The translations under genes and the position numbers were made by a program. A stretch of DNA of 64,000 nt from positions 384,875 to 448,874 of the forward strand of contig CAWJAS010000001.1 in assembly GCA_963840935.1 (NCBI GenBank). The letters are read 5' to 3'. Below are positions 1-43,478 of the stretch, in pieces. Under the pieces are notes generated by a model, which saw only the letters and a program-made list of their open reading frames with translations, was not told the origin of the DNA and did not search any database. The stretch is from Candidatus Magasanikiibacteriota bacterium. Its GTDB lineage: Bacteria; Patescibacteriota; Patescibacteriia; Magasanikbacterales; GWA2-37-8. Position 1 is the stretch's first letter. Every line of letters starts with the position of its first letter.

Positions 1-393
1 ATTTTGGTTGTTATGGGTGTTTTTGCAATTTTGGGACATTTATACGGTACGGAAATTGACACGGCATTTGTTGTCGCCACCTTAACAATTTTGGGTTATT
101 CGGTAAACGACACCATTGTGGTTTATGACCGTATCCGAGAAAGATTGCTCAAAAGAACCGGAGAATCTTTTTCCGATTTGGTAAATATCGGATTGAATCA
201 AACACTATCCAGGTCATTAAATACCGTCTTGACTACCTTATTACCATTAATTGCCTTGTATTTCTTTGGCGGGGCAACAATACATAATTTTGCCTTGGCG
301 CTCATAATTGGTATTGTGAGCGGAGCTTATTCATCAATTTTTATTGCCGGCCCGCTCCTTGCTATGGTTGAAAGACTTCAAAAAAGAGCCTAG
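1..393 (+). CDS. secF: Protein translocase subunit SecF/SecD family, C-terminal part (5' end cut by window edge)
   Basis: ORF 4-393 is in frame from base 1; conserved SecD/SecF C-terminal membrane motifs (VNDTIVVYDRIRE, NQTLSRSLNT, IIGIVSGAYSSIFIAGP); hairpin plus T-run follows. Confidence 0.8.
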   Translation: MLVVMGVFAILGHLYGTEIDTAFVVATLTILGYSVNDTIVVYDRIRERLLKRTGESFSDLVNIGLNQTLSRSLNTVLTTLLPLIALYFFGGATIHNFALALIIGIVSGAYSSIFIAGPLLAMVERLQKRA

Positions 394-654: not shown

Positions 655-2037
655 ATGCAGCCGTTGCTGATTGACACCCCTTTTGGCATCACTATTGATT
701 TATCCTTTTGGCAGGATTTTATTTTGTTTTCGCCTTATGAAAAAATAATAGCGATTTTTGTGATTGTTTTGTGGTGGATATTAGTAATAGCACTTTTCAC
801 AAAAGCGCTATCCGAATGGCAGAGTGCAAAACAAAAAGAATACACCGATACTTGGAAATGGTCTGTTTTGGCGGTAGATGTTCCCGCACCGTTCATAGGT
901 TCGCCAAAATCAGTTGAACAAATATTTGTTCAACTGTCCGGTGCCCACGTTAATTATGGCGTTTATGAAAGATATTTTTTGGGAAAAGTTCCAAAATGGT
1001 TTAGTTTTGAAATCATTTCCATTGAAGGATATATCCAATTTTTAGTAAGAGTTGAGTCGGAACTTCGAGATTTGGTTGAGGCGGCCATTTACGCGCAATT
1101 TGCTGAAGCTGAAATTACCGAAGTTGAAGATTACACGGCCGGTGTTCCGGATGACATGGCAAAAAACGGATATGAAGCGCAAGGAATAGAATTTTCTTTG
1201 GCTGAAAACGAAGTATATCCGATCCGAACATATCCGGATTTTGAATACTCAATTAGCAAAGATATGGTTTTTACCGACCCGATGGGAGCGATATTGGAAA
1301 ATTTTACCCGAGTGGGGGCCGGTGAACATTTGTGGATGCAGTTAGTGATTGTGCCGGTGGATAACAGTTGGAAGCAGGCGGGTATAAGTTTGGTAAAAAA
1401 AATAATTGCCGGAAAAAAAGAAGCGCCAAAAAGCGGTTTGGCGAGCATGGTTGGTAACGCTCCGGAAGCCATATTAAAAACAGCCATTCAAGCCTGGACA
1501 TATAATTTTGAAACCGATGAAAAGGCAAAGAAAAAAGAAGAGACACCGGGTAAAATTTCTGATTTAACGCCCGGCACCAAAGCGGTGGTTGAATCAATTG
1601 AAGACAAGATTTCCAAAATTGGTTTCAAATCATTTTTGCGCGCGGTTTATGTTTCAAAAAAAGAAAATTTTCAACCTCACAAATGCACGCATGGTTTGAT
1701 TGGTTCAATGAATCAATTCTACATAAATAACCGTAATGGTTTTAAGGCCAAATTAACCTCAGGTGAAAGTATCGTCTCAGCATTCAAAAGCAGGCAATTA
1801 AAGAGTATGGATAAATCGTATGTTTTAAATATTGAAGAACTTGCCACTATTTGGCATTTCCCAATGCCGACCGTAAAAACTCCACTTTTGCAGAAAGCCG
1901 ATATTAAACACGGCGAACCGCCGATTAATTTACCGATGGAAAATTTTGAAGCCCCTTTGAGACGCATACCTGTTATTCAGGGTGCCAAACAAGAAGAGGT
2001 AAAATCCGTTGAAGATGAAGATTTGCCCTACGCTTAA
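655..2037 (+). CDS. Membrane-anchored protein, paralog of the N-terminal ~400 aa of the ATPase encoded at 6502-9042 (no ATPase domain)
   Basis: N-terminal TM helix; shared blocks with the 846-aa protein (FEIISIEGYIQFLVRVESELRDLVEAAIYAQF vs FEIVVKNGKISFYVAVPDKLKEFIEHQINAQY; ELATIWHFPMPTVKTP..PPINLPME vs ELASLWHLPLASTETP..PPLNMPTE). Confidence 0.6.
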   Translation: MQPLLIDTPFGITIDLSFWQDFILFSPYEKIIAIFVIVLWWILVIALFTKALSEWQSAKQKEYTDTWKWSVLAVDVPAPFIGSPKSVEQIFVQLSGAHVNYGVYERYFLGKVPKWFSFEIISIEGYIQFLVRVESELRDLVEAAIYAQFAEAEITEVEDYTAGVPDDMAKNGYEAQGIEFSLAENEVYPIRTYPDFEYSISKDMVFTDPMGAILENFTRVGAGEHLWMQLVIVPVDNSWKQAGISLVKKIIAGKKEAPKSGLASMVGNAPEAILKTAIQAWTYNFETDEKAKKKEETPGKISDLTPGTKAVVESIEDKISKIGFKSFLRAVYVSKKENFQPHKCTHGLIGSMNQFYINNRNGFKAKLTSGESIVSAFKSRQLKSMDKSYVLNIEELATIWHFPMPTVKTPLLQKADIKHGEPPINLPMENFEAPLRRIPVIQGAKQEEVKSVEDEDLPYA

Positions 2038-3861: not shown

Positions 3862-4800
3862 TTATTGCCAGATAATGTCTCCGGTTGGCAATTGATCGAG
3901 CCAATCTTTTTGGACTATTTTTACATTTTTCCAAAGCCAGCCGTATTTTTTAAATAAGTCGGGATGAGTGATGTAATGTTTTGCCCCATCTTTTACCAGG
4001 TAAATTCTGTTACTGCCTTCGGCTTTGACTAAAATTTCTATGGTTGAGGTTGTTGTTGCCGGCTTGTTATCAACAAAATTAAGAGGAGTATCGCTTTTTA
4101 TTGCTATGCCGTTTTTTAAAGTATCAAGCAAAGTTTTGCTAACCGACCTAACATTACCCCATTGCCAACCAAATTTCTTAAACAAATCCGGGTGTGTAAT
4201 ATAATATTTTGTGTCGTTGTTCACAAAATAAATTCTGCTACCGCCTTCAACTTTAGCTAATAAATTTCGAATCGTAAAAATTGCTCTTGGCGGCCCATCC
4301 GCTTTGCTGTCCACGTGATTGAAATCATGCAAAGTGTTCATGATTGTATCATATTTGTAGCGAAAGTCAAGACCGTTTATATTACCGGAATCTTGCACGA
4401 TAAACTCGGATTTTTCATCATCAAAACCGCTCAAAACCAGCGTGTGGTATGATGACCCTTCGCGCCTAAAACGCAATGCCGGATTGTTTAAACCAAATCC
4501 ATAATGCATGGTAATCACCGGACGATTTTGCCTGATTTCTTCTTTTATTTGTTCAAGAGTGGGGTTGTCGACCACTGTTGCCTTGAAGGACATTTTTAAA
4601 TTCGCCAATCTGGCGGTTTGTTCAGCGTCAGTATCGGTATTTTTACCGAATAATTTATTTTCTAATTCAAATAAAGGCCAAATTAAATCGCGAGATTTTT
4701 GTGCCGAAATTGTTTTTACACCAAGATAATATTGATCAATCATGGTGATGGCTAGATTCTTCACAAGCATTATTCCATGGTGCCACCCACATTCCATCAA
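3862..4800 (-). CDS. Secreted C39-like (papain-fold) peptidase-domain protein with two C-terminal ~45-aa repeats; N-terminus displaced by a +1 frameshift
   Basis: ITMIDQYYLG following the Cys-containing WNNACEESS segment from the upstream frame resembles the Peptidase_C39_2 active-site region; C-terminal repeat YITHPDLFKK(F/Y)GW.W.NV occurs twice. Confidence 0.65.
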   Translation of the reverse strand: MMECGWHHGIMLVKNLAITMIDQYYLGVKTISAQKSRDLIWPLFELENKLFGKNTDTDAEQTARLANLKMSFKATVVDNPTLEQIKEEIRQNRPVITMHYGFGLNNPALRFRREGSSYHTLVLSGFDDEKSEFIVQDSGNINGLDFRYKYDTIMNTLHDFNHVDSKADGPPRAIFTIRNLLAKVEGGSRIYFVNNDTKYYITHPDLFKKFGWQWGNVRSVSKTLLDTLKNGIAIKSDTPLNFVDNKPATTTSTIEILVKAEGSNRIYLVKDGAKHYITHPDLFKKYGWLWKNVKIVQKDWLDQLPTGDIIWQ

Positions 4801-4920: not shown

Positions 4921-6456
4921 TTAAGCGACGACTTCTCCGCCAAATTGAGCCGCGAGTATTGTTAAATCACTGTCATTTTTTGCGTTTGATTCTGTGTTTT
5001 CATTTACAACGCATTTTAAAATCACTTTTACGCCAAGTAGTTCACCAAAAACTTCTTCAATTTTGATTTTACATTTAATATCCTCAATCTTTTCTTTATG
5101 AAAAGAGTAGGGGAGAGAAATGATAATTTCGTTATTATTAATTTCTTTTATCTCCGCCATTTTTAGCACAAAAATAAGCGATGGAAAAACGTCGGCAAGC
5201 CGAGTAATCATTTCCGGCCATTTTTCGCGGACGGTTTCTATTTTTAAATCGTTTGTGGATTGAGTGTTAGTTATTTCTTGTTTTTTTTCTTCCTTTACCT
5301 CAGTTTTTTTTGGCGGTTGTTTGTTTTCTTTTTCGTCGTCTTTATTATTGTTTTTTGGATTGTCATTCGTGATTTGTTCAGAAAATTGAACAGCCAATAA
5401 TTCAAGAGGTAATTGCGGTACGGGAGCCAATTTCATTTCCGATTTTCTTTCGATTGCCGAGCCGATAATTTTTATTAGTTTTTCATTGCCGAATTTAACA
5501 GCGAGTTCTTTAATGGATTTCCTGTCTTTTTCCGCGTATTCCGGACCGTACGAGGCATAACCGGATAAAGATATCATACCCGCTCGCAACACTTCAATTA
5601 TTTCCAAAGCGAATTGTTCCAGATTCGAACCGTTTTTGATTAAGTTATCAATCGTTAACAATGCGTCGTCGGTGTGGCCGTCGGCAATGGCTGATAAAAA
5701 ATTAAGCACTTCCTCGATATCGGAAGACGGCAAAATCAATTCCGCGTCGGCTGTTGTAATTTTTTTTAAATTAAGCGATAAAATTTGCCCGAGTAGGCTT
5801 TCGGCGTCGCGCATGCATCCGTCGCTTTTGATGATTATTTTTTTTAATACATCTTTTTCAACTTTTATATTTTCATTCTCGGCGATCGCTTCAAGTTTTT
5901 TTATCATTATATCTTCCGGAATTTTTTTGAAATTAAATCTTTGGCATCTGGAGATTATAGTCATCGGTAGTTTTCGAAGTTCGGTTGTGGCTAAAATAAA
6001 AACCACATGACTGGGCGGTTCCTCCAAGGTTTTTAAAAGCGCGTTGAAAGCGCTGGTTGAAAGCATGTGTACCTCGTCAATGATAAATACTTTGTATTTG
6101 GATTTTGTTGGTTTAAACTGCGCGTTGTCAATAATATTTTCACGAACATTATCAACACCGGTGTTTGAAGCGGCATCAATTTCAATCACGTCGATGTTGC
6201 GCGAAGAAGCGATTTCCGAACATGAAGAGCATTCGTTACATGGTTCAAAATCTCCGGGTTTTCTGTTTTGGCAATTGACCGCTTTGGCCAATAGACGCGC
6301 CATGGTTGTTTTGCCGGTGCCTCGAGGACCGGAAAACAAATAGGCATGAGCTATTTTTTCATCGCTTATTTCATTAACAAGCGTTTGAACCAAATGTTCT
6401 TGGCCGATAAGGTCGGAAAATTTTTGTGGACGGTATTTTCTGTATAGAGTTGACAT
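4921..6456 (-). CDS. dnaX: DNA polymerase III subunit gamma/tau
   Basis: YRKYRPQKFSDLIGQEH, GPRGTGKTT Walker A, CNECSSC zinc module, clamp-loader box. Confidence 0.95.
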   Translation of the reverse strand: MSTLYRKYRPQKFSDLIGQEHLVQTLVNEISDEKIAHAYLFSGPRGTGKTTMARLLAKAVNCQNRKPGDFEPCNECSSCSEIASSRNIDVIEIDAASNTGVDNVRENIIDNAQFKPTKSKYKVFIIDEVHMLSTSAFNALLKTLEEPPSHVVFILATTELRKLPMTIISRCQRFNFKKIPEDIMIKKLEAIAENENIKVEKDVLKKIIIKSDGCMRDAESLLGQILSLNLKKITTADAELILPSSDIEEVLNFLSAIADGHTDDALLTIDNLIKNGSNLEQFALEIIEVLRAGMISLSGYASYGPEYAEKDRKSIKELAVKFGNEKLIKIIGSAIERKSEMKLAPVPQLPLELLAVQFSEQITNDNPKNNNKDDEKENKQPPKKTEVKEEKKQEITNTQSTNDLKIETVREKWPEMITRLADVFPSLIFVLKMAEIKEINNNEIIISLPYSFHKEKIEDIKCKIKIEEVFGELLGVKVILKCVVNENTESNAKNDSDLTILAAQFGGEVVA

Positions 6457-6501: not shown

Positions 6502-9042
6502 TTATAAACTTTGTTCGCTGATGGTGTTTTGAGGCATTATTGAACCGAGTTGGGAACGCTCCATAATTTCCGCTTCAACGATTTCACGCGGTCGGCCGTA
6601 TTTGAGTCGAGATAATTCTTTGATTGCTTCACCAAGTTCTTTATTGCCCGGAGTTGGCGGATAGGTGCTCATATTAAACGGTTTTGCCGCGGTGTTGTCA
6701 ATAAGCAATTTAATATAGGCCGTGTATTGCTCAACGTTAATCAAATCATATGATGAAAATACCGGGGCAAATTCCTTTTGCAGTACCTCGGCGTCTTCAA
6801 TACCGATACGGAAAGAAACTATAGTGCCGGCATTGCCGAGAACGGCATCTCGCACGGTTGTTTTGCCCTTGTTGTCTTCAAGTTGCTTCATGTATTGGTG
6901 GGCGATAATCAAATTGAGTTTGTATTTTCGGGCTTCAGAAAGAATAGTGGCGATTGAATCAGTAATAAAGTTTTGAAACTCATCAATGTATAAATAAAAA
7001 TCATGGCGTTGTTCTTCGGGCAAAGATGCGCGTTCAAGAGCGGCCATTTGCAGTTTTGAGACAATAATCATACCAAGCAAGTTGGCATTTATTTCGCCGA
7101 TCAAACCTTTTGATAAATTAACCAAAAGTATTTTCTTTTGGTCCATCACTTCGCGAAAATTAAAACCGGAGCGTGATTGGCCGATAATATTTCGAATCAT
7201 GGAATTTTCTGTGAATCGGCCGACTTTTGAAATCAAGTAGCCAAGCATTTCAGATTTATGAAAGTCAGAAGTTTTGGCCATTTCTTTTTCCCAAAAAGAC
7301 ATTACCACCGGGTCTTTTAATTTCTTTTTCCATGATTCCACAAAGGCATCGTCTGTGAACATTCGTGGAATTTCCGCCACCGTTCCCGGGGTTTCCATAT
7401 CAGACATTAAAGTGAGCATCACATTTCGCATGTTGTGTTCAAACATCGGGCCGATCATTGACGGGTCTGTCACCATTTTATAAAAAATAGAAATCATTTC
7501 TTGGCAGGCAAAATCTTTTTGTTCTTCAGTGTGCACTTCAAGCATGTTCATGCCAATCGGACGGTCTATATCTGCCGGGCTAAAATAAATTACATCTTCA
7601 GCACGTTCTTTGGGCACATGTTGAAGCACATAATCGGCAAAATCTCCATGCGGGTCAATAACACAGACTCCATCCCCGTTCAATATATCTTGAACGGCTA
7701 AATTTTGTATGAAGACGGATTTTCCACTGCCCGATTTACCGATAGTATAAAGATGACGGCGTCGGTCGGGTCGTTTCATTTTTACAATTGTTTCCTCGCC
7801 TCTGTAAACCGCCCGGCCTAGGGTGATGCCCTCAGTCGGCATATTGAGCGGTGGCGGGGCCTTGCGCGCCCCTAGCCAGTCGATATGAGGCGTTTCAGTG
7901 GAAGCAAGGGGCAAGTGCCACAGAGAAGCCAATTCACTGGTATTGGCTACCATATAACCCTTTTCACGCATTGAGCGATAAATGGAATCTCTGATTAGTT
8001 TGGCCGGTTTTGCCGGCACGGCCGCGCCAAAAGAATTGCCATAGCGATAAATGTTGTATTGGCTAAAGGCATTAATTAAGTTTTCCAAATTTAATTTGGC
8101 TTTTTCCGTGTTTGATGAAGAACTAATCAAACGCACGGTTAATTCCAGTCCGCCCTGGCTAATTTTTTCTTCCATGTTTTTGACCATTTCTTCTTCAAGC
8201 TGGGTTAATCTATACGGTTCTTCAGAGCCTTGCTTCATCGGATCTTTTTTGGTGGTTGAAAGAGCTTTGCCGATTTTACCAAGGGATTTGGAAAGGGAGC
8301 TTTTTGATACGACATTTTCAAATTTTTCACCTTTGCGGATCGCTCTAATCATTTGCACACCTTGACTGCGCCAAGCGGTGGTTGCCGGTCTGACCACGTA
8401 TTGAATTAAAGCGCCTTCTTCTTCAAGTAGTTTGCTAAGTGGATTCAATAGCGACGACAGGGGATCGGCATCAAGATTTTTGTATGTTTTTAGTGGGAAG
8501 GCGGATCTTTGTTTGAATTTTAAATACGCGCCGACAATATGACTATTGGGCTTAAAAATATTATAATCCGGCTCAATGGTAATTTGAGCGTGTGGGTATT
8601 GAGCGTTAATTTGATGCTCGATGAATTCTTTTAATTTGTCGGGAACCGCCACATAAAAAGATATTTTTCCGTTTTTGACCACTATTTCAAAAGCTAAATG
8701 ATCGTTTCTGCCCCGAAGCCAGGCCATAAAGCCTTTTTCCGGTCGGAGGCCGGCAATGGTGGCAAAAAGAGTTTCCGCAATGGCGATTTGTTCGCGGATT
8801 TGGCTCATGGAATCGGAAGCGCCGGTGGAATCCCCCTTGTCACCTCCGCGTTCTTTTGGCACCTTAATCAGCATGACTGTTTTTTGAAAGGCCTTGCCCG
8901 TTTTTGCCTTGGCTTTAAAAATCAGTCTGATAATTTTTATAAAAATTACAAACGCGAAAAAAGCCCCGATCGCGGCCGCGGCCATAAGAAATAAATCAGA
9001 ATTTAACAGTGAACTGTCGATTTGTAATATATTCGGCTCCAT
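6502..9042 (-). CDS. Membrane-anchored P-loop ATPase of the VirB4/VirD4/FtsK-HerA (DUF87-like) class
   Basis: N-terminal TM helices; Walker A TIGKSGSGKS; Walker B LYIDEFQNF (DEaw-like); RKYKLNLIIAHQYMKQL (ATQ-like motif); N-terminal domain paralogous to ORF 655-2037. Confidence 0.6.
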   Translation of the reverse strand: MEPNILQIDSSLLNSDLFLMAAAAIGAFFAFVIFIKIIRLIFKAKAKTGKAFQKTVMLIKVPKERGGDKGDSTGASDSMSQIREQIAIAETLFATIAGLRPEKGFMAWLRGRNDHLAFEIVVKNGKISFYVAVPDKLKEFIEHQINAQYPHAQITIEPDYNIFKPNSHIVGAYLKFKQRSAFPLKTYKNLDADPLSSLLNPLSKLLEEEGALIQYVVRPATTAWRSQGVQMIRAIRKGEKFENVVSKSSLSKSLGKIGKALSTTKKDPMKQGSEEPYRLTQLEEEMVKNMEEKISQGGLELTVRLISSSSNTEKAKLNLENLINAFSQYNIYRYGNSFGAAVPAKPAKLIRDSIYRSMREKGYMVANTSELASLWHLPLASTETPHIDWLGARKAPPPLNMPTEGITLGRAVYRGEETIVKMKRPDRRRHLYTIGKSGSGKSVFIQNLAVQDILNGDGVCVIDPHGDFADYVLQHVPKERAEDVIYFSPADIDRPIGMNMLEVHTEEQKDFACQEMISIFYKMVTDPSMIGPMFEHNMRNVMLTLMSDMETPGTVAEIPRMFTDDAFVESWKKKLKDPVVMSFWEKEMAKTSDFHKSEMLGYLISKVGRFTENSMIRNIIGQSRSGFNFREVMDQKKILLVNLSKGLIGEINANLLGMIIVSKLQMAALERASLPEEQRHDFYLYIDEFQNFITDSIATILSEARKYKLNLIIAHQYMKQLEDNKGKTTVRDAVLGNAGTIVSFRIGIEDAEVLQKEFAPVFSSYDLINVEQYTAYIKLLIDNTAAKPFNMSTYPPTPGNKELGEAIKELSRLKYGRPREIVEAEIMERSQLGSIMPQNTISEQSL

Positions 9043-9050
9043 TTAAAAAA

Positions 9051-9545
9051 TTATTTTTTTAAATTTATAATGTGATCGGTTTTTATTTTAGCCTCCTGTT
9101 CCAAAAAAAACCGATTGACGTTCGGAAGGAGAGAAAGCCATTCAAGAATCAGGCGAAATATATTTTTGATTTTTACTTTTGTCGCTTTGAGGAGTTCGCC
9201 TATCTTTGAAGCGGTTTGCTCGCCTTTTAATTTGAATTCTTGCTGAACAATCGGAGGAAGTTTTTTGTAATCTTCTTCAAGTCCTTCGGCTAGTATTTTT
9301 TCTATTTTAATGGTTATTTCATCACGGGGCATGACCGGCAAAGCCGATCTTTTTTTAATCTTTGGCAGGCTAATTTTTGTTTTTTCTTTTTGTTGTTGTT
9401 CTTTTTGGGTTTCAATATCACGGTCACTTGGCTCATTTTCTTTTGAAGATTCTAAATCAACATCTGTTTCAATATTAGCCGGTTTTAATAAATCGGCCTC
9501 AGGACCATGTTGAGAGGGTGTTTTTTCTGTGGCATTTTGGTTCAT
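9051..9545 (-). CDS. Hypothetical charged (Lys/Glu-rich) protein, likely co-transcribed with the flanking genes
   Basis: ORF only; 164 aa; 6-nt gaps to both neighbours on the same strand. Confidence 0.45.
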   Translation of the reverse strand: MNQNATEKTPSQHGPEADLLKPANIETDVDLESSKENEPSDRDIETQKEQQQKEKTKISLPKIKKRSALPVMPRDEITIKIEKILAEGLEEDYKKLPPIVQQEFKLKGEQTASKIGELLKATKVKIKNIFRLILEWLSLLPNVNRFFLEQEAKIKTDHIINLKK

Positions 9546-9550
9546 AACTT

Positions 9551-11881
9551 TTATTTCAGGTTAAACTGGTAAACCTTTCCGGAATCAAGAATGTAGGCCG
9601 TATTTTTTGTTTCTTCAACAACCATGCTTACCGGTGAGGCGAGTTCGTTCGCGGTTATTTGCCGGATCAATGCGCCGTTTTTATCAAAAATAACCATTCG
9701 TTTATTGTTAGCGTCTAGCAAATAAAAATTATCAGCATCATTATATGTCCAAATTTCGTTACCTCCGTTTAATATCGGATCGATTGTTTCAAGCTCAAAC
9801 ATTTGTTCTGTTCCTTGGGTGAATTTATAAATTGCCCCATTTGATTTTTGGACAAATAAATCACCATCAATTGTTATGTCAATTCCATCTCTGATATTTA
9901 TACCGCTTGCCTGAAGCCAATCTTTTCCAATACCAAAACCCCCGATTATATTATCGTGCCTGTAAATTTGATTTGTTTGGGTATCAAGTGAATAAAGCCG
10001 TCTGTTGTAGACAACGATTGATTGGATTTTTGACTCTTGCGCGCTGTAGCTTATTTGAGCTTTTTTGAAAATGTTGGTTTGTGGTTCGTAAACAGCGATG
10101 GATTTGAAATCTGAAGCCAAGAAAGCCACATAATCGTCTTCTTTGGGCACCGTGCCGTCAATAAAACCGCTCAAAGTGTTTTCCGTCGGTTTTACCTCAT
10201 TATTTTCTTTAGTTAACAAATCATAAATTAAAAGAGAATTGGAATTCGGTGAAAATCCGATTATTTTTGTATCAAGCTTAACTATTTTTTGAATATCGGA
10301 AAATCCCATTGAATTCCAGTCCACGATCAGATCAAGTTTTACGGTTTCCATTTTCTGCAGTTTAAGAGATAGTTCGGAAAGACGGCCGTTAATGTCCTCG
10401 CAAGTCGGTTGGTCAATCGGCCTGCATTCAAAGTTGGCGATATAATTATTTGCTTCAACCATTTGGGTTTTTGCGCCTCGTTCATCGCCGTAAATCATGG
10501 CGCTTTCCGCTGAGTCGATTTTATTTTTTATCATTTGTAAGCTTTCTTCATATAGACGATTACTTTCAGTTGCGTTTTTTTGAGCTTGTAAGAATAAAAT
10601 GCTGATAATAAAAACTATAATAAAAATTACTGAAGCGATGGCTAGAATTTTTGTGAGCAATGGAAGGTCTTTGATACTTTGAAAAAAACGACGCCGGCTT
10701 TCCGACCATGATTCCAAAATTGAACGTCGGCGATTTTTGTAGTTAATCAATATAATAAAAAGCATTATAAAAAATCGCCCGATATTAACAATAGCTTTAG
10801 CCAGCGCGAAAAACAGCCAATATATGCCTAATCCGGCATATTTTAGACCTTTCCAGGCGGTTAAAATTATTATTTTTAAATAAACCGATATTTTATCTTC
10901 CGAAGAATTTGATTTTACGTGAGGTTTAATGTGGGGTGAAGAATTATCTTCTTGCTCCTGCCTGACGGCGGATGCAAAAATAATATTTTTATTTGTCGGG
11001 ATAGTTTGTTTTTTATTTGATTGTTGTTCTTCATCTTCTTCGCCATCCTCCTCATCATAATCATCATCGTGCCTTGCGTTCATCATTGTTTTAACTTTAG
11101 AGTTTAGGTCCTCCATTAAAGAAGGGGATAGAGTTCGAGCGGTCTGAGCTTCGGTATCCGATAAATTAGGTTTTTTTGCTTGTTCGGATTTGGTGACGGA
11201 TGAACCGCTGAATTCAGGAGTAAAGTGAGCGACTAGACCACCGTATGAATAACCGTTTTTTATGTTACACAAAACTTTTTCAAGATGTTCCGCGCTTTGC
11301 TCGGCAGTTCTGCCCGTAATAATTTTTTGCAGGCGGTCATGATTGAAACAATTGGCGATGTGCGCGGTGCCGGCAAAAAAATAATCACCGTCGGAAATTT
11401 TACCTTGAATAATTTGTGAAAAAAGCTTGCCGTCGTCGTTCTCTTCTTCGTTGGCCGCGATTAAATCCATTTTTTTGTATTGGCCGAATTTATTTTTGTA
11501 AAAAAGAACCGCTTCCGGAGTACCGCAAAATGAAAAAGTCAGTTCATTGCCTTTGAGGGTGCCGACCAAGCAATTCAACTCAGAGTCATCTCCGGACAAA
11601 ACGAAGTTGTCTTTGTTAATTTCTTCAAAAATTGTTTCAAGAGCGTTTGTTTCCGGCGTGTCCGGTATTTCGTAATAATCGTTTTCGATTTTATCCATTA
11701 ACGCCTGAAGGTTTAATACGTCGTTTTTATCGCTTTTATTAATTTCGCAAATAGCAAAAAAATAACCCTTTTTCTTTTCTTCTTCGGGAGTGGAGGGTTG
11801 TATTATGTGTAATAAAACATGCGACAACTCTTGTTTATCGCCTTCAACAAAAAATTCATTCAATTGTAAAATTGATGCCAT
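9551..11881 (-). CDS. Large membrane protein: cytoplasmic N-domain, central TM helices, C-terminal beta-propeller-like repeat domain
   Basis: 776-aa ORF; hydrophobic segments around aa 330-430; C-terminal repetitive beta-strand-like segments (IYRHDNIIGGFG, LFVQKSNGAIYKF, YLLDANNKRMVIFD). Confidence 0.55.
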   Translation of the reverse strand: MASILQLNEFFVEGDKQELSHVLLHIIQPSTPEEEKKKGYFFAICEINKSDKNDVLNLQALMDKIENDYYEIPDTPETNALETIFEEINKDNFVLSGDDSELNCLVGTLKGNELTFSFCGTPEAVLFYKNKFGQYKKMDLIAANEEENDDGKLFSQIIQGKISDGDYFFAGTAHIANCFNHDRLQKIITGRTAEQSAEHLEKVLCNIKNGYSYGGLVAHFTPEFSGSSVTKSEQAKKPNLSDTEAQTARTLSPSLMEDLNSKVKTMMNARHDDDYDEEDGEEDEEQQSNKKQTIPTNKNIIFASAVRQEQEDNSSPHIKPHVKSNSSEDKISVYLKIIILTAWKGLKYAGLGIYWLFFALAKAIVNIGRFFIMLFIILINYKNRRRSILESWSESRRRFFQSIKDLPLLTKILAIASVIFIIVFIISILFLQAQKNATESNRLYEESLQMIKNKIDSAESAMIYGDERGAKTQMVEANNYIANFECRPIDQPTCEDINGRLSELSLKLQKMETVKLDLIVDWNSMGFSDIQKIVKLDTKIIGFSPNSNSLLIYDLLTKENNEVKPTENTLSGFIDGTVPKEDDYVAFLASDFKSIAVYEPQTNIFKKAQISYSAQESKIQSIVVYNRRLYSLDTQTNQIYRHDNIIGGFGIGKDWLQASGINIRDGIDITIDGDLFVQKSNGAIYKFTQGTEQMFELETIDPILNGGNEIWTYNDADNFYLLDANNKRMVIFDKNGALIRQITANELASPVSMVVEETKNTAYILDSGKVYQFNLK

Positions 11882-11988
11882 ATGCTTTGACTATACTAAC
11901 ATTATACATTATACTATATATTGAAAAAAGCGTCTATTTATTGTGGATAATTATTACATTAAAAAAACATCATAATTTTATCAAAACT

Positions 11989-12584: not shown

Positions 12585-12929
12585 ATGAAGCTTTTGATTG
12601 ACAATAGCGAGGAAAGTGAAGTTATTATTTGCGCAAAAATTCAAAAGTGGAAAAAGTTTGTCATAAAAAACAAAGCGCAAAAACCTCTCTTGGTGATTCT
12701 CAATAATTTTTTATCAAAAAATAAAAAGAAGTTGACAGATATCACCGGTATTGCCGTGGTTGTGGGGAAGGGCCGGTTTACGGCTACGCGCATTGCCGTC
12801 ACAGTTGTAAACACTCTTGGCTACGCCCTCAAAATTCCGGTAGTGTCCGTAATTTCGAATGAGCGAGGAGTTTGCCGAAAAAGCGCTCAAAAAAGCCAAG
12901 TCGGGCGTGTTCGTCAGTGCCAAATATAG
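12585..12929 (+). CDS. tsaB: TsaB (YeaZ)-like t6A biosynthesis protein, short form
   Basis: LLIDNSEESEV and ITGIAVVVGKGRFTATRIAVTVVNTLGYALKIPVVSV match the TsaB N-terminal ASKHA core; C-terminus absent (short form). Confidence 0.5.
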   Translation: MKLLIDNSEESEVIICAKIQKWKKFVIKNKAQKPLLVILNNFLSKNKKKLTDITGIAVVVGKGRFTATRIAVTVVNTLGYALKIPVVSVISNERGVCRKSAQKSQVGRVRQCQI

Positions 12930-29672: not shown

Positions 29673-30971
29673 TCAGATTTTGGCAAAAAGCATGGGGATG
29701 CCAAGTCGGCGACGCCCGTTTTCTCCGAGCAGTTTTTCTTTCTGTCGTTCGGATATGTCACCCCTGTCACCCAAGTGCGCGCCGAATTTTTGCGCCTCAA
29801 AACTGGAACCCAAAAAAACCGAGTGTTTGCCGAATCTGCCGGCCAGTTCATCAACACTTTCATAAAGCTTGACCATTTTTTGCATTTTGGCGCCCGAACT
29901 GAAAAGATCGGGTTGAAGTACAGCCGGATTTAAATCAGATAACACAACACCGGTGGCGCGAAAAATTTTACCTTTGCGAATAAGCGAGCCAAAAATATCA
30001 CGCGTTTGAGCGACAATTTCTTGCGGAATATTGGTTGGACGTAACAAGGCCATCTCCGCGCCAAAGTGACGGAAGTCCTGCGTGTGCAAAACAACAGTCG
30101 CCGAGCCGGCGTTCAATTTGTGTCGGCGCGCTTTGATGCAGGCGTTTTCAATATTTTTGGAAAGTTGTGAAAAAATAAAATCAGGATTTTCGGACGGGGG
30201 AGTGAATGTTTTGAATTTTTGAACCGAATAATATGATGACTTTTCTTCCATATGCAAAGGCATAACCGAAGCGCCGTTAAGTTCCTGCCAAATTTCCCAA
30301 AACGGTCGAGCGAGATTGCTCTTTACCCACCACTCATTGGCTCTGGCAAAATCTCCGGCAGTATAAAAATTATGCCGATTCAAAAATGAAGTGGTTGCTT
30401 CACCAATGCCCCAAACTTTTTCTACTGGCCATTTATCCAAAAATTTCCAACGGTCGCGAGTAGTAATAGCAGTCAGTCCGGATGGCTTTTTCCATTTGGA
30501 ACCGACTTTGGCGAGCACCTTGCTTGGCGCGAGCCCCATGGAAAAAGTGAAACCCAATTCACTATCCAAATCTTGTTTAATTTTTTGCGCCAAAGATAAA
30601 TAACCGGAGCCGTGGAGTTTGCCATAGCCGGTTAAGTCGGCAAAGCATTCGTCTATGCCATATTCTTCCACCGCATGCGTGTAGCGACGTACAATGGCGT
30701 ACAAACGGCGGGAGAGCAGGGAATAGGTTTCATAGTCGGACGGCAAAATGACTGCCTCAGGACAAATTCTGCGGATTTGAAATAACGGCATTCCGCGGGT
30801 GACCCCACGCGCCTTGGCTTCATAACTCATCGAAGAGGCAATCCCACGCTCCTTGCCGGTCACCACGGGTCGGCCTTTTAATTCCGGCCGGCGCGACTGT
30901 TCGCAAGAAGCAAAAAAAGCATCGCCGTCGACGTGCATAATCGCTTTTGGATAAGAAGATATGGCGAACAT
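29673..30971 (-). CDS. Y-family translesion DNA polymerase (DinB/UmuC-like)
   Basis: IMHVDGDAFFASCEQ (catalytic DxD...E), SMSYEAKARGV, VWGIG; immediately downstream of lexA on the same strand. Confidence 0.9.
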   Translation of the reverse strand: MFAISSYPKAIMHVDGDAFFASCEQSRRPELKGRPVVTGKERGIASSMSYEAKARGVTRGMPLFQIRRICPEAVILPSDYETYSLLSRRLYAIVRRYTHAVEEYGIDECFADLTGYGKLHGSGYLSLAQKIKQDLDSELGFTFSMGLAPSKVLAKVGSKWKKPSGLTAITTRDRWKFLDKWPVEKVWGIGEATTSFLNRHNFYTAGDFARANEWWVKSNLARPFWEIWQELNGASVMPLHMEEKSSYYSVQKFKTFTPPSENPDFIFSQLSKNIENACIKARRHKLNAGSATVVLHTQDFRHFGAEMALLRPTNIPQEIVAQTRDIFGSLIRKGKIFRATGVVLSDLNPAVLQPDLFSSGAKMQKMVKLYESVDELAGRFGKHSVFLGSSFEAQKFGAHLGDRGDISERQKEKLLGENGRRRLGIPMLFAKI

Positions 30972-31745: not shown

Positions 31746-33137
31746 ATGTACAAAAAATACGCCAAGAAAAAGAAAAAAGAAAAGGCCTATGTCAGCCGGC
31801 CGACCAAAGAAGACCCCAATCGTTTTGACCATTTAATAATTAACGATGAATGGCAGACGGTTCTTGACGCGCTTGAAAACAGTCCGGAAAATATTTTTAT
31901 CACCGGACGGGCCGGCACCGGCAAATCCACCTTGCTTGATTATTGGCGGGCGCAAACCAAACAAAATATTGTGGTGCTCGCGCCAACAGGCGTAGCGGCG
32001 CTTAATGTTCGCGGTCAAACCATTCATTCATTTTTTGTGTTTCATCCGGGTATTACTCCGGCTGATGTGCGCCGTTATCCCACAAAAAAAGACGGTGAAA
32101 GCATTTACAAAAAAATCGACACCATTGTGATTGACGAAGTTTCCATGGTCAGAGCCGACCTTCTTGATTGCGTGGATAAATTTATGCGCTTGAACGGCCG
32201 AGACAAAGGCAAAGCTTTTGGCGGAGCGCGTCTCGTTGTTTTTGGCGATTTGCACCAGCTTCCGCCCGTTGTCACCGAAGCTGAGCGCGAAGCGTTTTTT
32301 TCACTTTATCGCACGCCGTATTTTTTTTCCGCCAATGTTTTGTGCGACCGTCGTTTAATCCAAATGGATAATGATTTTATCAAATATGAATTAACAGAAA
32401 TTCATCGTCAAAAAGACGCCAATTTTATCAAGCTATTAAATCGCGTGCGCGACAATGAAGCCACGGCCGAAGACCTATCAGAGCTTAATCAAAGACATGA
32501 CCCGGAATTCATATTTGACGAAGACGATTACCGAATTTATCTCACTGCCACCAATTATGTGGCGGCAGAAATAAACAACGCTCGCCTTAATCGTTTGTCC
32601 GAAAAACCGCAAATTTTTAAAGCCGATAAGTACGGGCACTTTGACGACCGAGTTCATCCGACCGACGAAGTTCTGCAACTCAAAGTCGGCGCGCAAGTGA
32701 TGCTTATCAACAACGATTCGGCCAAGCGATGGGTCAATGGCACAATCGGTCGAGTGGCGGAATTAAAAAAAGACACCTACAACTTGCCAATCGTAAAAGT
32801 AAAATTATCGGACGGTGAAGTGGTGGAAGTGGAGCCGTTCACCTGGAAATCGCATCGCTATCATTTTAATGTTTCAGCGCAAAAAGTGGAAGCCGAAGAA
32901 ATCGGTTCGTTCACTCAATTGCCTATCAAATTGGCTTGGGCGGTAACTATTCACAAAGCGCAGGGCAAAACTTTTGACCGTGTGGCTTTGGATATCGGCC
33001 GTGGCGCCTTTGCTTCGGGTCAACTCTATGTGGCGCTTTCGCGCTGTACCTCGCTTGAAGGATTAACCTTGGTCGCTCCGTTAATGCCACGCGACATCAT
33101 TACCGACCCGGTGGTGGTGGAATTTTTGCGCGGATAA
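31746..33137 (+). CDS. Pif1/RecD-family 5'-3' DNA helicase
   Basis: IFITGRAGTGKST Walker A, VVLAPTGVAALNV, VIDEVSM Walker B, AVTIHKAQGKTFDRV C-terminal motif. Confidence 0.85.
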   Translation: MYKKYAKKKKKEKAYVSRPTKEDPNRFDHLIINDEWQTVLDALENSPENIFITGRAGTGKSTLLDYWRAQTKQNIVVLAPTGVAALNVRGQTIHSFFVFHPGITPADVRRYPTKKDGESIYKKIDTIVIDEVSMVRADLLDCVDKFMRLNGRDKGKAFGGARLVVFGDLHQLPPVVTEAEREAFFSLYRTPYFFSANVLCDRRLIQMDNDFIKYELTEIHRQKDANFIKLLNRVRDNEATAEDLSELNQRHDPEFIFDEDDYRIYLTATNYVAAEINNARLNRLSEKPQIFKADKYGHFDDRVHPTDEVLQLKVGAQVMLINNDSAKRWVNGTIGRVAELKKDTYNLPIVKVKLSDGEVVEVEPFTWKSHRYHFNVSAQKVEAEEIGSFTQLPIKLAWAVTIHKAQGKTFDRVALDIGRGAFASGQLYVALSRCTSLEGLTLVAPLMPRDIITDPVVVEFLRG

Positions 33138-39001: not shown

Positions 39002-42000
39002 ATGACAAATAATTGCGTATCTGAATTTGTAAAATCAGTAATAGAAAAATATAAATCAGGTCAAGCCAAAGAGCATGCTTATCGTCCGGCTTTAGAAAAG
39101 TTGTTCGGCGACATCTCTGGCCTTAATGTGATCAACGACCCCAAACGGAGCGAATACGGTGCGCCGGATTTTGTGTTTATGAAAGGAAAAGTGGCCGCCG
39201 CCTATGCCGAAGCCAAAGATATAGGCGTATCGCTTGGCGAAACAGAAAAAGGTGAACAACTTGCTCGTTATTTTGGCTATTCCAATTTAATTCTCACGGA
39301 TTGTTTAGAGTTTCGTTTTTTTCGCAACGGTCAAAAATACGAAACAGTGAAGATCGCCGAAATAAAGGACGGTGAAATAGTGGCGGACGAAAACAATTTT
39401 TCGCATTTAGAAGATACAATTAAAGAATTTATCAATGAAGCCAAAGAACCGATAAAATCCGGCGCCGTACTCGCCAAAGTCATGGCCGGCAAGGCGCGTC
39501 GCATTCGAGACAACATCAAAAAGTATCTGAACGAAAAAAACGAAGTTAAGAACGCGAGTTTATTGTCAATATACAATGCTATAAAAAATTTGTTACTCAA
39601 TGATTTGGATTATGAAAAATTTGCAGACATGTACGCGCAGACGGTTGTTTATGGTTTGTTTGTCGCTCGTTTTCACGACCAAACACCCGACACTTTCTCT
39701 CGGCAAGAAGCGCGCGATTTAGTGCCGAAATCCAATCCATTTTTACGTAAATTTTTTGACCATATCACCGGCGAGGATTTTGATGAACGCATCGGCTTTA
39801 TTGTTACGGAACTGTGTGAGGAATTCGTGCACGCCGATGTTCGCGCGATAATAAACAATTATTACAAAGTGGAAAAAGACGATAGCCGCGACCCCATTAT
39901 TCATTTCTACGAAGATTTTTTGCAGGAATATGATCCGGCGGAACGCAAGAAAATGGGTGTGTTTTATACGCCATTGCCGGTGGTACGATTTATCGTGCGC
40001 GCAATAGACGAAATTTTAAAAATCGAATTTGGCTTGAGCGGACTTGTCGATGCTATGAAAGAGGACATTGTTAAGGAGTCTCAGGGTAAAAAATACAAAG
40101 ACAAGATCCATAAAGTTCAAATTCTAGATCCAGCCACCGGCACAGGGACATTTTTGAATGAGGTCATTAGGCAAATCAAAGAATCGTTTAAGGGCCAGGA
40201 GGGTCGTTGGCAGAGTTATATCAAAGAGGACTTAATCCCGCGGCTTTATGGTTTTGAATTAATGATGGCGCCGTACACTATCGCGCATTTAAAAATCTCT
40301 TCTTTTTTGAAAGAGAACGGTGTTCATATCGGCGACGAACGGATCGGTCTGTATCTCACAAATTCTCTTGAAAAAGGCGACAAAGAACACGACACCCTTT
40401 TTGATTTTGGTTTGGCCAAAGCAATTTCTGATAAATCCAGAAAAGCTAACATTATTAAAGTTAAGGTGCCGATAATGGTAGTTTTAGGAAATCCGCCGTA
40501 TTCTGGTGAGTCTAGTAATAATTTTGAGAGTGCGAATAGATTAGTAGACAAATATAAATTTGAGCCAGGAGGCTTACTTAAATTAAAAGAAAAAAATCCA
40601 AAATGGTTAAATGATGATTATGTTAAGTTTATTGCCTTTTCAGAAAATTTAATAGATAAAAACGGTGAAGGCGTTTTAGGGTTTATTACTAATCATAGTT
40701 ATCTGGACAATACAACCTTTAGAGGAATGCGTTGGGAACTTGCACAGACTTTTGATGAAATTCATATAGTAGATCTTCACGGAAATGTTAAGAAAAAAGA
40801 AAAGCACCCAGATGGAAGTGTAGACGAAAATATTTTCGGTATACAGCAGGGTGTAGCTATTATAATTGCTGTGAAAAAGAAAAATAAAGGCGCTAAAAAG
40901 GATGCCAAGGTTTTCGTCTCTGATTTGTACGGTACGAAAAAGGTTAAATTTAATGCATTGAATAATGACGAAATAAAATATACAGAAATTAAATTAGATC
41001 AGCATCAGTACTATTTTGTAAACAAAAATTTTCAAGGAAAAGATGAATACGATAAGGGGTTTTTTGTAAATGATTTGTTTATTGTTTCTAATGTTGGCAT
41101 TGTCACTTCGGCTGATAGTATTTTGGTGGCACCAACTAAAGAGGAATTACTCAAACAATTATATAGCGCTAAAGAGGAAAATAGCGCTAAGAAAACAATT
41201 CAAAAGTTGAAAAATGAATCTATCGAAGAAAGAAAAATGCAAAAAGTAACTTATAGGCCATTTGATAATCAGTATGTTTATTATGAACCAAATGTTATTG
41301 AACGTGCCCGGTATAAAGTGATGAAAAATTTTATAGCCAAAGATAATGTTGGTCTAATATTTATGAGAGGTGGTATAGAGGTAAAATCCTCACCAATTTT
41401 CCTTTCTAAATATATTAGCAAATCCAGGAGCTGGTCGCGTCCAGGAATGCAAGGTGTCAAATCATTAGCACCACTTTATTTATATATGGAAGATGGATCA
41501 AAAATTCCAAATTTCAATAAAGAGATCGTAAAGCAAATAGAAAAAATTATTGGGCAAGCGACTCCCGAAAACATATTTGATTATATATACGCGATTTTGA
41601 ACAGTCCGAGTTATGGTGAAAAATATAAAGAGTTTTTGAAAATAGATTTTCCGCGCGTGCCGTACCCGAAAGATGAAAAACAATTTTTTGATTTAGCAAA
41701 ATTGGGCGAGGAATTGCGCCATTTGCATTTGTTTGAGAGTCCAAAAATAAATAATTTTATCACGACCTATTCAGAACCCGGCGATAATTTGGTTGAAAAG
41801 GTTATTTATAATGAAGAAAATGTGTTTATTAACAAAGCACAATTTTTTGGCGATGTTCCTAAAATCGCCTGGGAATTTTACATCGGTGGCTATCAACCTG
41901 CCCAAAAATGGCTCAAAGATCGCAAAGGTCGCAATTTATCAAACTCCGATATTGAACATTATCAAAAAATTATCGTGGCGCTTGTTGAGACAGGTAGAAT

Positions 42001-43301: not shown

Positions 43302-43478
43302 AAAACAACCCCTTACGGGGTGTTTCCAACCATGCATTCTATACTGGTTGTCCCAGTCACGCCACCGTCCGGTGACAGTTCGATATGCAGGTTTAGGTAT
43401 TTCCATTATAGCATAAAACTCGTAAAATTGGAATAGGTTTGTGTGTATAACTATATATTTATTTAATTTTAGCCAAAA

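Follow-up and report, generated by a model that had tools for sequence, protein, structure and literature searches.

A membrane-anchored ATPase combining a predicted VirB4-like N-terminal domain, DUF8128, with a VirD4-like motor belongs to a conserved two-gene module in Magasanikbacteria

We analyzed a stretch of 64,000 nucleotides (nt) from the genome of a Candidatus Magasanikiibacteriota bacterium (assembly GCA_963840935.1, contig CAWJAS010000001.1, positions 384,875 to 448,874 of the forward strand; hereafter the window), with emphasis on a gene coding for an 846-amino-acid (aa) membrane-anchored ATPase that resembles the motors of type IV secretion systems (T4SS). An earlier interpretation made from the letters of the window (the sequence-only reading) had assigned this gene to a cluster of three minus-strand genes, regarded as a possible reduced secretion, DNA-transfer or uptake apparatus built from lineage-specific parts, and had described its N-terminal domain as duplicated in a separate gene. 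The four open reading frames (ORFs) involved are present exactly where that reading had placed them:

6502 to 9042, minus strand: 846-aa ORF, a membrane-anchored fusion of 'type A' between DUF8128 and an ATPase like that of type IV coupling proteins (T4CPs) (ORF call, Pfam)
9051 to 9545, minus strand: 164-aa charged soluble protein, the conserved partner located 5' of the ATPase gene in the operon (ORF call, tblastn)
9551 to 11881, minus strand: 776-aa Magasanikbacteria-specific membrane protein (ORF call, homologue search)
655 to 2037, plus strand: 460-aa standalone DUF8128 protein with one transmembrane (TM) helix (ORF call, BLASTP)

Within the 846-aa protein a membrane anchor, an N-terminal domain and a motor domain can be distinguished, with the name DUF8128 resting on the precomputed annotation of homologues:

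8938 to 8994, minus strand: single N-terminal TM helix, residues 17-35 (Kyte-Doolittle; a long helix, residues 16-52, in the AlphaFold2 (AF2) model)
7828 to 8880, minus strand: DUF8128 (PF26449), approximately residues 55-405, predicted fold like that of the VirB4 N-terminal domain (precomputed PF26449 on homologues, AF2, Foldseek)
7909 to 7935 and 7837 to 7857, minus strand: motifs ELASLWHLP and PPPLNMP at the junction of DUF8128 and the ATPase
6673 to 7815, minus strand: P-loop translocase ATPase domain, approximately residues 410-790 (Pfam, sequence matches to TrwB and DotL, fold matches)

All of the motifs quoted in the sequence-only reading were recovered. These are the Walker A sequence GKSGSGKS (residues 435-442, nt 7717-7740), IDEFQNF as part of the Walker B segment YLYIDEFQNF (residues 683-692, nt 6967-6996), EARKYKLNLIIAHQY (residues 703-717), and the junction motifs ELASLWHLP and PPPLNMP together with their counterparts ELATIWHFP and EPPINLP. 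The N-terminal membrane anchor also stands, although not as the several helices originally proposed, given that a Kyte-Doolittle hydropathy scan (the method used for TM predictions in all four proteins) locates only one. The N-terminus is acidic and a K/R-rich stretch follows the TM helix, so by the positive-inside rule both DUF8128 and the ATPase are predicted to be cytoplasmic.

At the sequence level the ATPase is of a T4SS type, as had been proposed, rather than a member of an unrelated clade, and it most closely resembles VirD4 and TrwB. Specifically, the domain scores above the gathering cutoffs of PF10412 (TrwB_AAD_bind, 36.5 versus 20.5 bits), PF02534 (T4SS-DNA_transf, 35.6 versus 20.1), PF12696 (29.2 versus 22) and PF01935 (DUF87), and the best sequence match of the protein in the PDB is TrwB (1e-8), with DotL likewise among the closest solved relatives. 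Alignment by hhalign spans 299 columns with the VirD4 protein TrsK of pGO1 versus only 74, located around Walker A, with the VirB4 protein TrsE. The Walker residues are unchanged across 40 diverse homologues, and homologues across Magasanikbacteria are 57-96% identical to the 846-aa protein. The names of database homologues assign the window, a piece of chromosome, to Candidatus Magasanikbacteria in the phylum Patescibacteria. Precomputed PF26449 annotation is present on near-identical database proteins of both the 846-aa protein (P0001, 96% identical) and the 460-aa protein (P0121, 100%). Look-ups by exact sequence gave no record for either the 846-aa protein or P0121.

The 846-aa protein nevertheless fails every curated NCBIfam cutoff for TraD, VirD4, VirB4 and HerA, with its best T4CP scores falling short at 53.5 versus 366 (TIGR03743) and 33.9 versus 250 (NF045973). 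A VirB4 sequence signature is absent, as indicated by no PF03135 (CagE_TrbE_VirB) match at E <= 0.1 and a TIGR00929 score of 15.1 bits versus 643. The same is true for FtsK/SpoIIIE (PF01580, 15 bits versus a cutoff of 24, with no gamma or 4TM match) and for HerA-NurA (NF040937, 13.6 bits versus 800, with no NurA-like neighbour). No DNA-binding domain was identified in the protein.

A different affinity is observed when the predicted fold of the N-terminal domain is considered. The AF2 model of residues 36-410 has a predicted local distance difference test score (pLDDT) of 74.6 and a predicted template modelling score of 0.77, and a Foldseek search of the PDB with this DUF8128 model returned TrwK/VirB4 chains of the R388 T4SS as all of its top 14 matches (E = 2.9e-5 to 1.6e-3, probability 1.00, TM-score ~0.42), followed by generic ferredoxin-like folds at probability <0.5; no other match combined E < 6e-3 with a probability >0.5. 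In the full-length model the N-terminal domain reaches a pLDDT of ~90 while the catalytic domain is poor. This model is collinear with full-length VirB4 over 784-917 columns (E = 3e-10), whereas Cagbeta, TrwB, DotL and HerA align only to its C-terminal ~340-500 columns. The ATPase domain is modelled with a helical insertion at approximately residues 500-620; the PF10412 alignment covers residues 426-746, and the helices of the model occupy approximately residues 506-619, where pLDDT is 55-80.

Comparison with the known T4SS ATPases reveals a mixture of features. The 846-aa protein shares with the T4CPs (VirD4, TrwB, TraD, Cagbeta and DotL) an N-terminal membrane anchor and a catalytic domain that has intact Walker A and B motifs and scores above the cutoffs of Pfam T4CP models. 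The helical insertion, modelled at low pLDDT, may correspond in position to the all-alpha domain of T4CPs. TrwB, its best solved sequence relative, is ~20% identical in the fold alignment. In contrast, the T4CP hallmark of a two-TM N-terminal domain directly before the nucleotide-binding domain is replaced by one TM helix and ~350 aa of DUF8128, no relaxase or mating-pair-formation gene was found among the Pfam-scanned ORFs (those adjoining the cluster and the large ones of the window) and no recurrent candidate family in the 80 related loci, where neighbour families are partly annotated, and the family is chromosomal and near-universal in the phylum, with two to three paralogues. With VirB4 (TrwK of R388; TrsE/PrgJ of monoderm systems) the protein shares the two-domain layout of an N-terminal domain plus ATPase. 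In VirB3-VirB4 fusions an N-terminal TM segment precedes a VirB4-type N-terminal domain, which is also the order in the 846-aa protein. The VirB3-VirB4 fusion layout is mentioned by Quinonero-Coronel et al. (2025, PMC12102498). The protein differs from VirB4 in lacking its sequence signature, in having a catalytic domain nearer to VirD4 and in being coded outside of a T4SS cluster; the genuine VirB4 of Patescibacteria is another gene, located near dnaA or comF. T4CP-like sequence together with VirB4-like fold and collinearity therefore suggest a hybrid that combines VirB4-like architecture with a VirD4-like engine on a one-TM tether, as judged from sequence comparison and structure models.

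We also compared the gene neighborhood among Magasanikbacteria by scanning one genome per species, which provided 80 loci with orthologues that are 57-83% identical to the 846-aa protein. A homologue of the 164-aa protein (tblastn, 37-67% identity) is located directly 5' of the ATPase gene, on the same strand and within a few hundred bases, in every locus with upstream DNA (all 80 except L040 and L048), and the corresponding ORF family is called at this position in 74 of 79 loci. This protein has no TM helix. Its N-terminal half is acidic and variable, and conservation is concentrated in a C-terminal domain of ~90 residues (residues ~75-164, nt 9054-9323) that contains the motifs QEFK.KGE.TA ... 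NRFFLEQEAKIK. Searches of Pfam, NCBIfam, PADLOC, PHROG and PDB sequences gave no match to the family, and its hidden Markov model (HMM) detects no homologue 5' of more distant fused genes except at one ABY1-like locus; in some distant fused loci the upstream position is instead taken by ruvX, by an M23 peptidase gene or by small charged helical ORFs unrelated to the family.

The 776-aa gene behaves differently. Its homologue adjoins the ATPase gene only in the closest relatives (L001/L003, L004 and L010), which is 3-4 of the 80 loci, and at L001 an opposite-strand corA gene separates it from the 164-aa gene. In Parcubacteria bacterium Gr01-1014_13 the ATPase and 776-aa homologues carry locus tags 319 and 367, 48 genes apart. 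The protein has a conserved N-terminal domain, an acidic linker, ~3 TM helices and a putative C-terminal NHL-like beta-propeller; of the membrane and propeller features ascribed to it earlier, the membrane part is borne out by ~3 TM-like segments (residues 349-430, nt 10592-10837) while the propeller signal is weak (Brat NHL, 2.5e-3; DUF5128, 1e-4, just below cutoff). The family is far less conserved than the ATPase, and all organism-labelled members among its 205 homologues are from Magasanikbacteria, Patescibacteria or the Parcubacteria group. The 776-aa protein was thus rejected as a channel or partner, given its lack of synteny and its restriction to Magasanikbacteria; it is a local neighbour and not a component of the module. 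The spacing of the three minus-strand genes is as tight as had been noted, although the gaps are 5 nt (776-aa to 164-aa) and 8 nt (164-aa to ATPase) rather than 6-9, and this spacing allows co-transcription in this genome. The conserved unit, however, is two genes, the 164-aa gene and, 3' of it, the 846-aa gene, rather than the three of the proposed apparatus.

The 460-aa protein is a true paralogue of the N-terminal domain. BLASTP aligns it to the 846-aa protein over 443 collinear residues (E = 9e-28, 24% identity), with the first ~410 residues of the 846-aa protein collinear with the whole of the 460-aa protein, which itself has one TM helix (residues 31-49, nt 745-801). Its gene has secF upstream and dus downstream with no adjacent ATPase gene, and the order SecA-SecD-SecF-DUF8128-Dus is also found in L001 and L208. 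The 460-aa protein is orthologous to a secDF-linked family of standalone DUF8128 proteins, and thus its gene did not arise by recent copying of the N-domain of the 846-aa protein. We therefore rejected a recent tandem-type duplication, given 24% identity and the large orthologous family and context of its own; what had been called a duplicate is an ancient paralogue. Relatives of the 460-aa protein at 40-51% identity also lack an adjacent ATPase gene, whereas those at 33-38% identity have one. This would make the 460-aa protein the anchor subunit of a second, ancient secDF/sigma-linked paralogous module, the adjacent ATPase of which is missing in this lineage. An HMM of the ATPase run over all window ORFs detected no second T4CP-like ATPase in the window.

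To place these two proteins in a wider family we retrieved DUF8128 loci from metagenomes with a degenerate DNA pattern for N..E(L/M)A(S/T).WH(F/L)P, which yielded 120 loci with 121 DUF8128 ORFs. DUF8128 is fused to the ATPase in 30 of these ORFs, is separate with the ATPase gene immediately downstream in 32, is separate with the ATPase within three genes in 2, stands alone in 40, and is located at a contig edge in the remaining 17. With a DUF8128 profile we recovered 3,222 clusters at 50% identity, and the 150 top-ranking ones are all stand-alone proteins of 283-691 aa. The split forms divide the fused protein in a consistent manner, with the split point located directly after the conserved PPxNLP motif that marks the domain junction of fused proteins; split DUF8128 proteins, as seen in the C-termini of standalone DUF8128 (L083-L202), end exactly at PPxNLP. 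The membrane anchor stays with DUF8128, with at least one TM helix present in 65 of 73 stand-alone DUF8128 proteins and none in 21 of 23 split ATPases. Split ATPases L086:6468-8321 and L207:9093-11252 have a C-terminal treble-clef zinc finger (PF23477) that the fused protein in the window lacks. A neighbor-joining tree divides the ATPase domains into a split clade and two fused groups, namely type A, with the window protein among its members, and type B (~700-760 aa, mostly without a TM helix). The split arrangement is corroborated by independent gene calls with precomputed Pfam annotation.

The fused and unfused forms also occupy different contexts, as observed when co-oriented neighbours within four genes upstream are counted. 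The secD-secF pair is present upstream of 17 of 28 split and 7 of 28 alone forms, and a gene with sigma-70 region 4 (sigma70_r4) plus HARE-helix-turn-helix (HARE-HTH) domains is present upstream of 11 of 28 split and 19 of 28 alone forms; neither is found upstream of any of the 24 fused forms. Independent gene calls give the orders SecA-SecD-SecF-DUF8128-ATPase and SecD-SecF-...-sigma-like-DUF8128-ATPase. The sigma-like gene codes for a ~346-aa protein and is located directly 5' of standalone or split DUF8128 in 37 loci (for example, L151:2312-3352 and L209:5906-6973). The 460-aa protein keeps the internal EPPINLP (1915-1935) and adds PPxxLPYA at its C-terminal end (2014-2034). A second motif of this type, PPE(D/N)LPY(A/G), is found at the extreme C-terminus of orphan standalone DUF8128 proteins in Magasanikbacteria, where it may function as a docking peptide.

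Relatives of the pair are also found well beyond Patescibacteria. A tblastn search with DUF8128 gave matches on haloarchaeal megaplasmids, on Priestia and Clostridium plasmids and on Bacillus phage G, and homologues are present as well in SPO1-like Bacillus phages. The Natrinema plasmid pNVE500 (L203) codes in order for a T4CP-like protein of 1,102 aa, a DUF8128-like protein of 395 aa (HMM, 1.3e-20) and a TraM-recognition ATPase of 1,030 aa (4e-34), so the last two have the same split arrangement as the unfused forms of the candidate phyla radiation (CPR). In phage G (L205), homology extends over the full length of gp156 (825 aa; 3e-41 over residues 89-812 by tblastn), and the VirB-like ATPase gp155 is coded next to it. 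The 846-aa protein matches phrog_5156 with E = 1.7e-90 (residues 112-830, profile positions 75-808 of 824), and the 460-aa protein matches the N-terminal part of this profile (1.2e-12). Foldseek against BFVD returned gp156 (1e-16, N-domain), a phage JL protein (3e-15) and gp155 (4e-7). These relatives differ from the window protein in being coded on phages or plasmids beside a second ATPase (gp155 or the 1,102-aa protein) and in being only ~20-23% identical. Their existence contradicts the view of the N-domain as a lineage-specific part, as does its VirB4-like predicted fold. Taken together, the fused, split, phage and plasmid forms demonstrate that DUF8128 and the ATPase are an evolutionarily obligate pair, fused in some cases and split in others among bacteria, archaea and phages. 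As a side note, gp155 falls in PHROG 2666, the annotation of which as 'terminase large subunit' looks doubtful.

Additional features that flank the module and the 460-aa gene are:

4921 to 6456, minus strand: dnaX (DNA polymerase III tau/gamma), 45 nt 3' of the 846-aa gene
4 to 393, plus strand: 3' end of secF (translation match; SecD_SecF_C at the same position in L001, L207, L208 and L209)
11908 to 11936, minus strand: best sigma-70-like promoter match, TAGACG-17-TATAAT, 5' of the 776-aa gene (consensus scan only, with no evidence of function)

Most Magasanikbacteria loci with a long enough flank have dnaX 3' of the ATPase gene, and the two nearly always share a strand. No terminator-like site was found between the 846-aa gene and dnaX, which may be part of the same transcription unit. 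In more distant loci a ~215-240-aa protein (F8/f13) and a SWIB protein are coded between the ATPase and dnaX. The F8/f13 family has no Pfam match and is located directly 3' of type-A fused ATPases (L045:12607-13332, L131:2538-3182, L193:6674-7324, L102, L087 and L163). No F8 homologue is present in the window, and this family may be a further component of the module that was lost in this lineage. Neighbours in relatives include genes for the 164-aa protein, dnaX, a C39-like peptidase, corA and cysS. The C39-like peptidase (3862 to 4800, minus strand; family F4) contains two ~35-aa internal repeats, RIY(F/L)V..(Y/H)YITHPDLFKK(F/Y)GW.W.NV, and is kept 3' of dnaX in many Magasanikbacteria loci. 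Many loci (L005-L053, for example L009:1350-9300) also have a minus-strand block of ligA, prepilin peptidase, pilin-like, response regulator and pilM genes 3-8 kb 5' of the module with cysS in between; the window has HTH, tsaB-like, glycosyltransferase, DUF4012 and mreB genes in this position. The tsaB-like gene is a 114-aa TsaB/TsaD-family fragment (12585 to 12929, plus strand; PF00814 positions 31-90 of 264), a 124-aa counterpart of which is conserved in L001; it is therefore a shortened member of the family and not an artefact of assembly.

Several features further along the window were also observed. An Rfam DUF3800-IX RNA motif (43324 to 43393, minus strand; 46.3 bits versus a gathering cutoff of 36.8) lies where GC is low, flanked by a 204-aa ORF and the gene for a DUF2779 protein. 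Genes for a DinB-like polymerase (29673 to 30971, minus strand), a PIF1-like helicase (31746 to 33137, plus strand), a Type ISP restriction-modification enzyme (39002 to 42034, plus strand) and a UvrD-type helicase with a Top1 zinc ribbon (45421 to 47907, plus strand) are present. The GC fraction rises to 0.44-0.47 at 30-36 kb and falls to 0.34 at 40-44 kb, and these GC shifts suggest that the restriction, helicase and polymerase stretches may be islands. A histidine kinase of 1,057 aa with GAF and multiple PAS domains (56028 to 59201, plus strand) is large for a reduced CPR genome.

Genes of this type have been counted before. Quinonero-Coronel et al. (2025, PMC12102498) reported 5,713 VirD4-like T4CP homologues in 2,918 of 3,035 Patescibacteria genomes, of which only 148 are near virB4, and VirB4 in 2,417 genomes; the authors suggested exaptation of the T4CP homologues as a possibility. 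Functional information is available from transposon sequencing of Candidatus Southlakia epibionticum, in the essential T4SS cluster of which no coupling protein is recognisable (Wang et al., 2023, PMC10633639). In Table S1 of that study SEML1_0142 (1,019 aa; TraM-recognition; P-loop from ~residue 381) is essential at all three time points, and SEML1_0141, a 139-aa gene 12 nt 5' of it, is growth-defective and then essential (GD/ES/ES). SEML1_0293 (921 aa; PF10412 at residues 402-719) follows directly after an essential sigma-like gene. SEML1_0142 and SEML1_0293 resemble the 846-aa protein in being T4CP-like with a P-loop domain behind a long N-terminal region, which in these two is unassigned and gives way to the P-loop domain at ~residue 380-400; the SEML1_0141/0142 pair is reminiscent of the 164-aa/846-aa pair, and SEML1_0293 follows a sigma-like gene as do standalone and split DUF8128 genes. 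SEML1_0142 and SEML1_0293 thus appear to resemble the two paralogue classes found here, with the differences that both are longer than the window protein and that essentiality splits between them. The sigma-like gene itself, SEML1_0294 (annotated RpoS), has the same position as the sigma70_r4 plus HARE-HTH gene 5' of DUF8128. The orphan T4CP-like genes of Patescibacteria/CPR are therefore already published, while the VirB4-like N-domain, the split/fused duality, the contexts and the relatives are apparently new: no mention of DUF8128 or PF26449 was found in the literature searched, nor any publication on the architecture, the fission and fusion, the gene contexts or the phage and archaeal relatives.

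We favour, at about an even chance, a reading in which the 846-aa protein is a membrane-tethered, ring-forming motor of the VirB4/VirD4 branch of the FtsK-HerA superfamily, most likely with a T4SS-coupling role, that functions in a two-gene module with the 164-aa protein. The protein would form a hexamer that uses ATP to drive a polymer substrate towards the membrane. In R388 the N-terminal domain of VirB4 docks this ATPase onto VirB3 and VirB8, and DUF8128, positioned next to the membrane, would most likely anchor the motor there and serve as the platform for its assembly. In many CPR lineages these two parts are separate genes, with a TM helix in the DUF8128 protein and none in the ATPase coded after it. 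CagZ is a small T4CP-binding protein, and by analogy the 164-aa protein may be a lineage-specific adaptor or regulator. The motor as a whole would most likely be the coupling or energising ATPase that is absent from the chromosomal T4SS cluster of Patescibacteria. TrsD of pGO1, which is remotely homologous to the N-terminus of VirB4 but coded as a protein of its own, offers a parallel in concept for the standalone DUF8128 proteins (the 460-aa protein and the split forms), which are likewise VirB4-N-domain-like and coded alone beside an ATPase gene. The parallel is limited, however, as hhalign shows no similarity of DUF8128 to pGO1 TrsD, and the TrsD homologues reported in Patescibacteria adjoin virB4 (PMC12102498) whereas standalone DUF8128 follows secDF or a sigma-like gene.

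Several observations weigh against this reading. The link of DUF8128 to the VirB4 N-terminal domain is one of fold only, with a modest TM-score of 0.42, and the catalytic domain of the full-length model is of low confidence. No hhalign signal links DUF8128 to the N-terminus of pGO1 TrsE (probability 0.1) or to TrsD, a comparison of low sensitivity because both targets are single sequences. The T4SS-like partners expected of a secretion apparatus did not turn up, with no VirB3-, VirB6- or VirB8-like gene or relaxase among the cluster-adjacent and large window ORFs scanned with Pfam, no VirB3, VirB6 or VirB8 among recurrent families of related loci, and no recurrent unexplained membrane-protein family within ±10 kb of those loci, where neighbour families are partly annotated. 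The phage G and haloarchaeal plasmid homologues adjoin a second ATPase with no obvious secretion channel. In Southlakia, orthology to the window protein is suggested by architecture and context only, and one of the two paralogues, SEML1_0293, is non-essential (PMC10633639). Finally, T4CP-like genes are present in 96% of genomes compared with 80% for VirB4, which argues against a strict dependence on the T4SS.

This last point also speaks for an autonomous membrane-associated DNA translocase that is independent of the virB4 cluster and functions in uptake or foreign-DNA processing, in plasmid- or phage-type DNA handling, or in a segregation-related process, which we consider possible although on balance doubtful. 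Not only is the family commoner than VirB4, it is almost never linked to virB4; the FtsK-HerA/T4CP clade consists mostly of DNA pumps, with TrwB, HerA and FtsK-type models all among the matches; split-type ATPases carry the treble-clef zinc finger; homologues reside on DNA-handling elements (phage G, SPO1-like Bacillus phages and haloarchaeal megaplasmids); and dnaX lies 3' in most Magasanikbacteria loci. The dnaX linkage is restricted to one class, however, and may be inherited gene order, and the window protein has no identified DNA-binding domain. A canonical FtsK (SEML1_0096) is present and essential in Southlakia (PMC10633639), so chromosome segregation already has a motor, and a replacement of FtsK was rejected on this ground. 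Growth is possible without comEC-dependent transformation (PMC12102498), whereas SEML1_0142 is essential. A still wider claim, that these proteins are a distinct ancient motor family between VirB4 and VirD4, present in fused and split form, independent of T4SS clusters, core and partly essential in Patescibacteria and shared with haloarchaeal megaplasmids and large Bacillus phages, strikes us as rather unlikely.

The context of the unfused forms raises the question of a Sec-associated ATPase for protein export or membrane-protein assembly. EssC/EccC, the FtsK-like ATPases of type VII secretion, provide the analogy, and there are weak fold matches to ESX translocon chains in addition to the secD-secF pair upstream of split and alone forms and the SecA-SecD-SecF-DUF8128 order, seen repeatedly in independent gene calls. 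The 846-aa gene itself, however, belongs to the fused class, which is never secDF-linked, the linkage may be historical because gene order in CPR is highly conserved, the ESX matches are of low probability, and no substrate-like genes (WXG or similar) are located nearby, which makes this role improbable. More improbable still is a domesticated mobile-element, phage or defence module, akin to MADS mad8 or phage G gp155/gp156, instead of a housekeeping machine. The full-length phrog_5156 match and the homologues on haloarchaeal megaplasmids and on Clostridium and Priestia plasmids agree with such an origin, as does a PADLOC mad8 match at 7e-15. That match involves the generic ATPase domain only, however, the other three of the four proteins run through PADLOC had no match, and neither a further MADS component nor an integrase or a repeat boundary was observed. 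Furthermore, the gene lies amid housekeeping genes (cysS, corA, dnaX, secDF and mreB) in stable synteny over 80 genomes, with an identity of 57-96% that is above the 38-73% of dnaX, and the family is near-universal in the phylum.

Patescibacteria rely on host cells and may account for a large part of the diversity of bacteria. Only one species is genetically tractable; its T4SS is essential, yet the T4SS cluster has no coupling ATPase, while each Patescibacteria genome contains about two 'orphan' T4CP-like genes that have so far had no assigned role. These orphans now have a VirB4-like N-module in DUF8128, fused and split versions in distinct conserved contexts, relatives in phages and on archaeal plasmids, and one likely counterpart that is essential in Southlakia. 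The shared module, its contexts, the Southlakia counterpart and the relatives thus turn a vague annotation into a defined, testable machine, and the findings bear on how VirB4 and VirD4 diverged.

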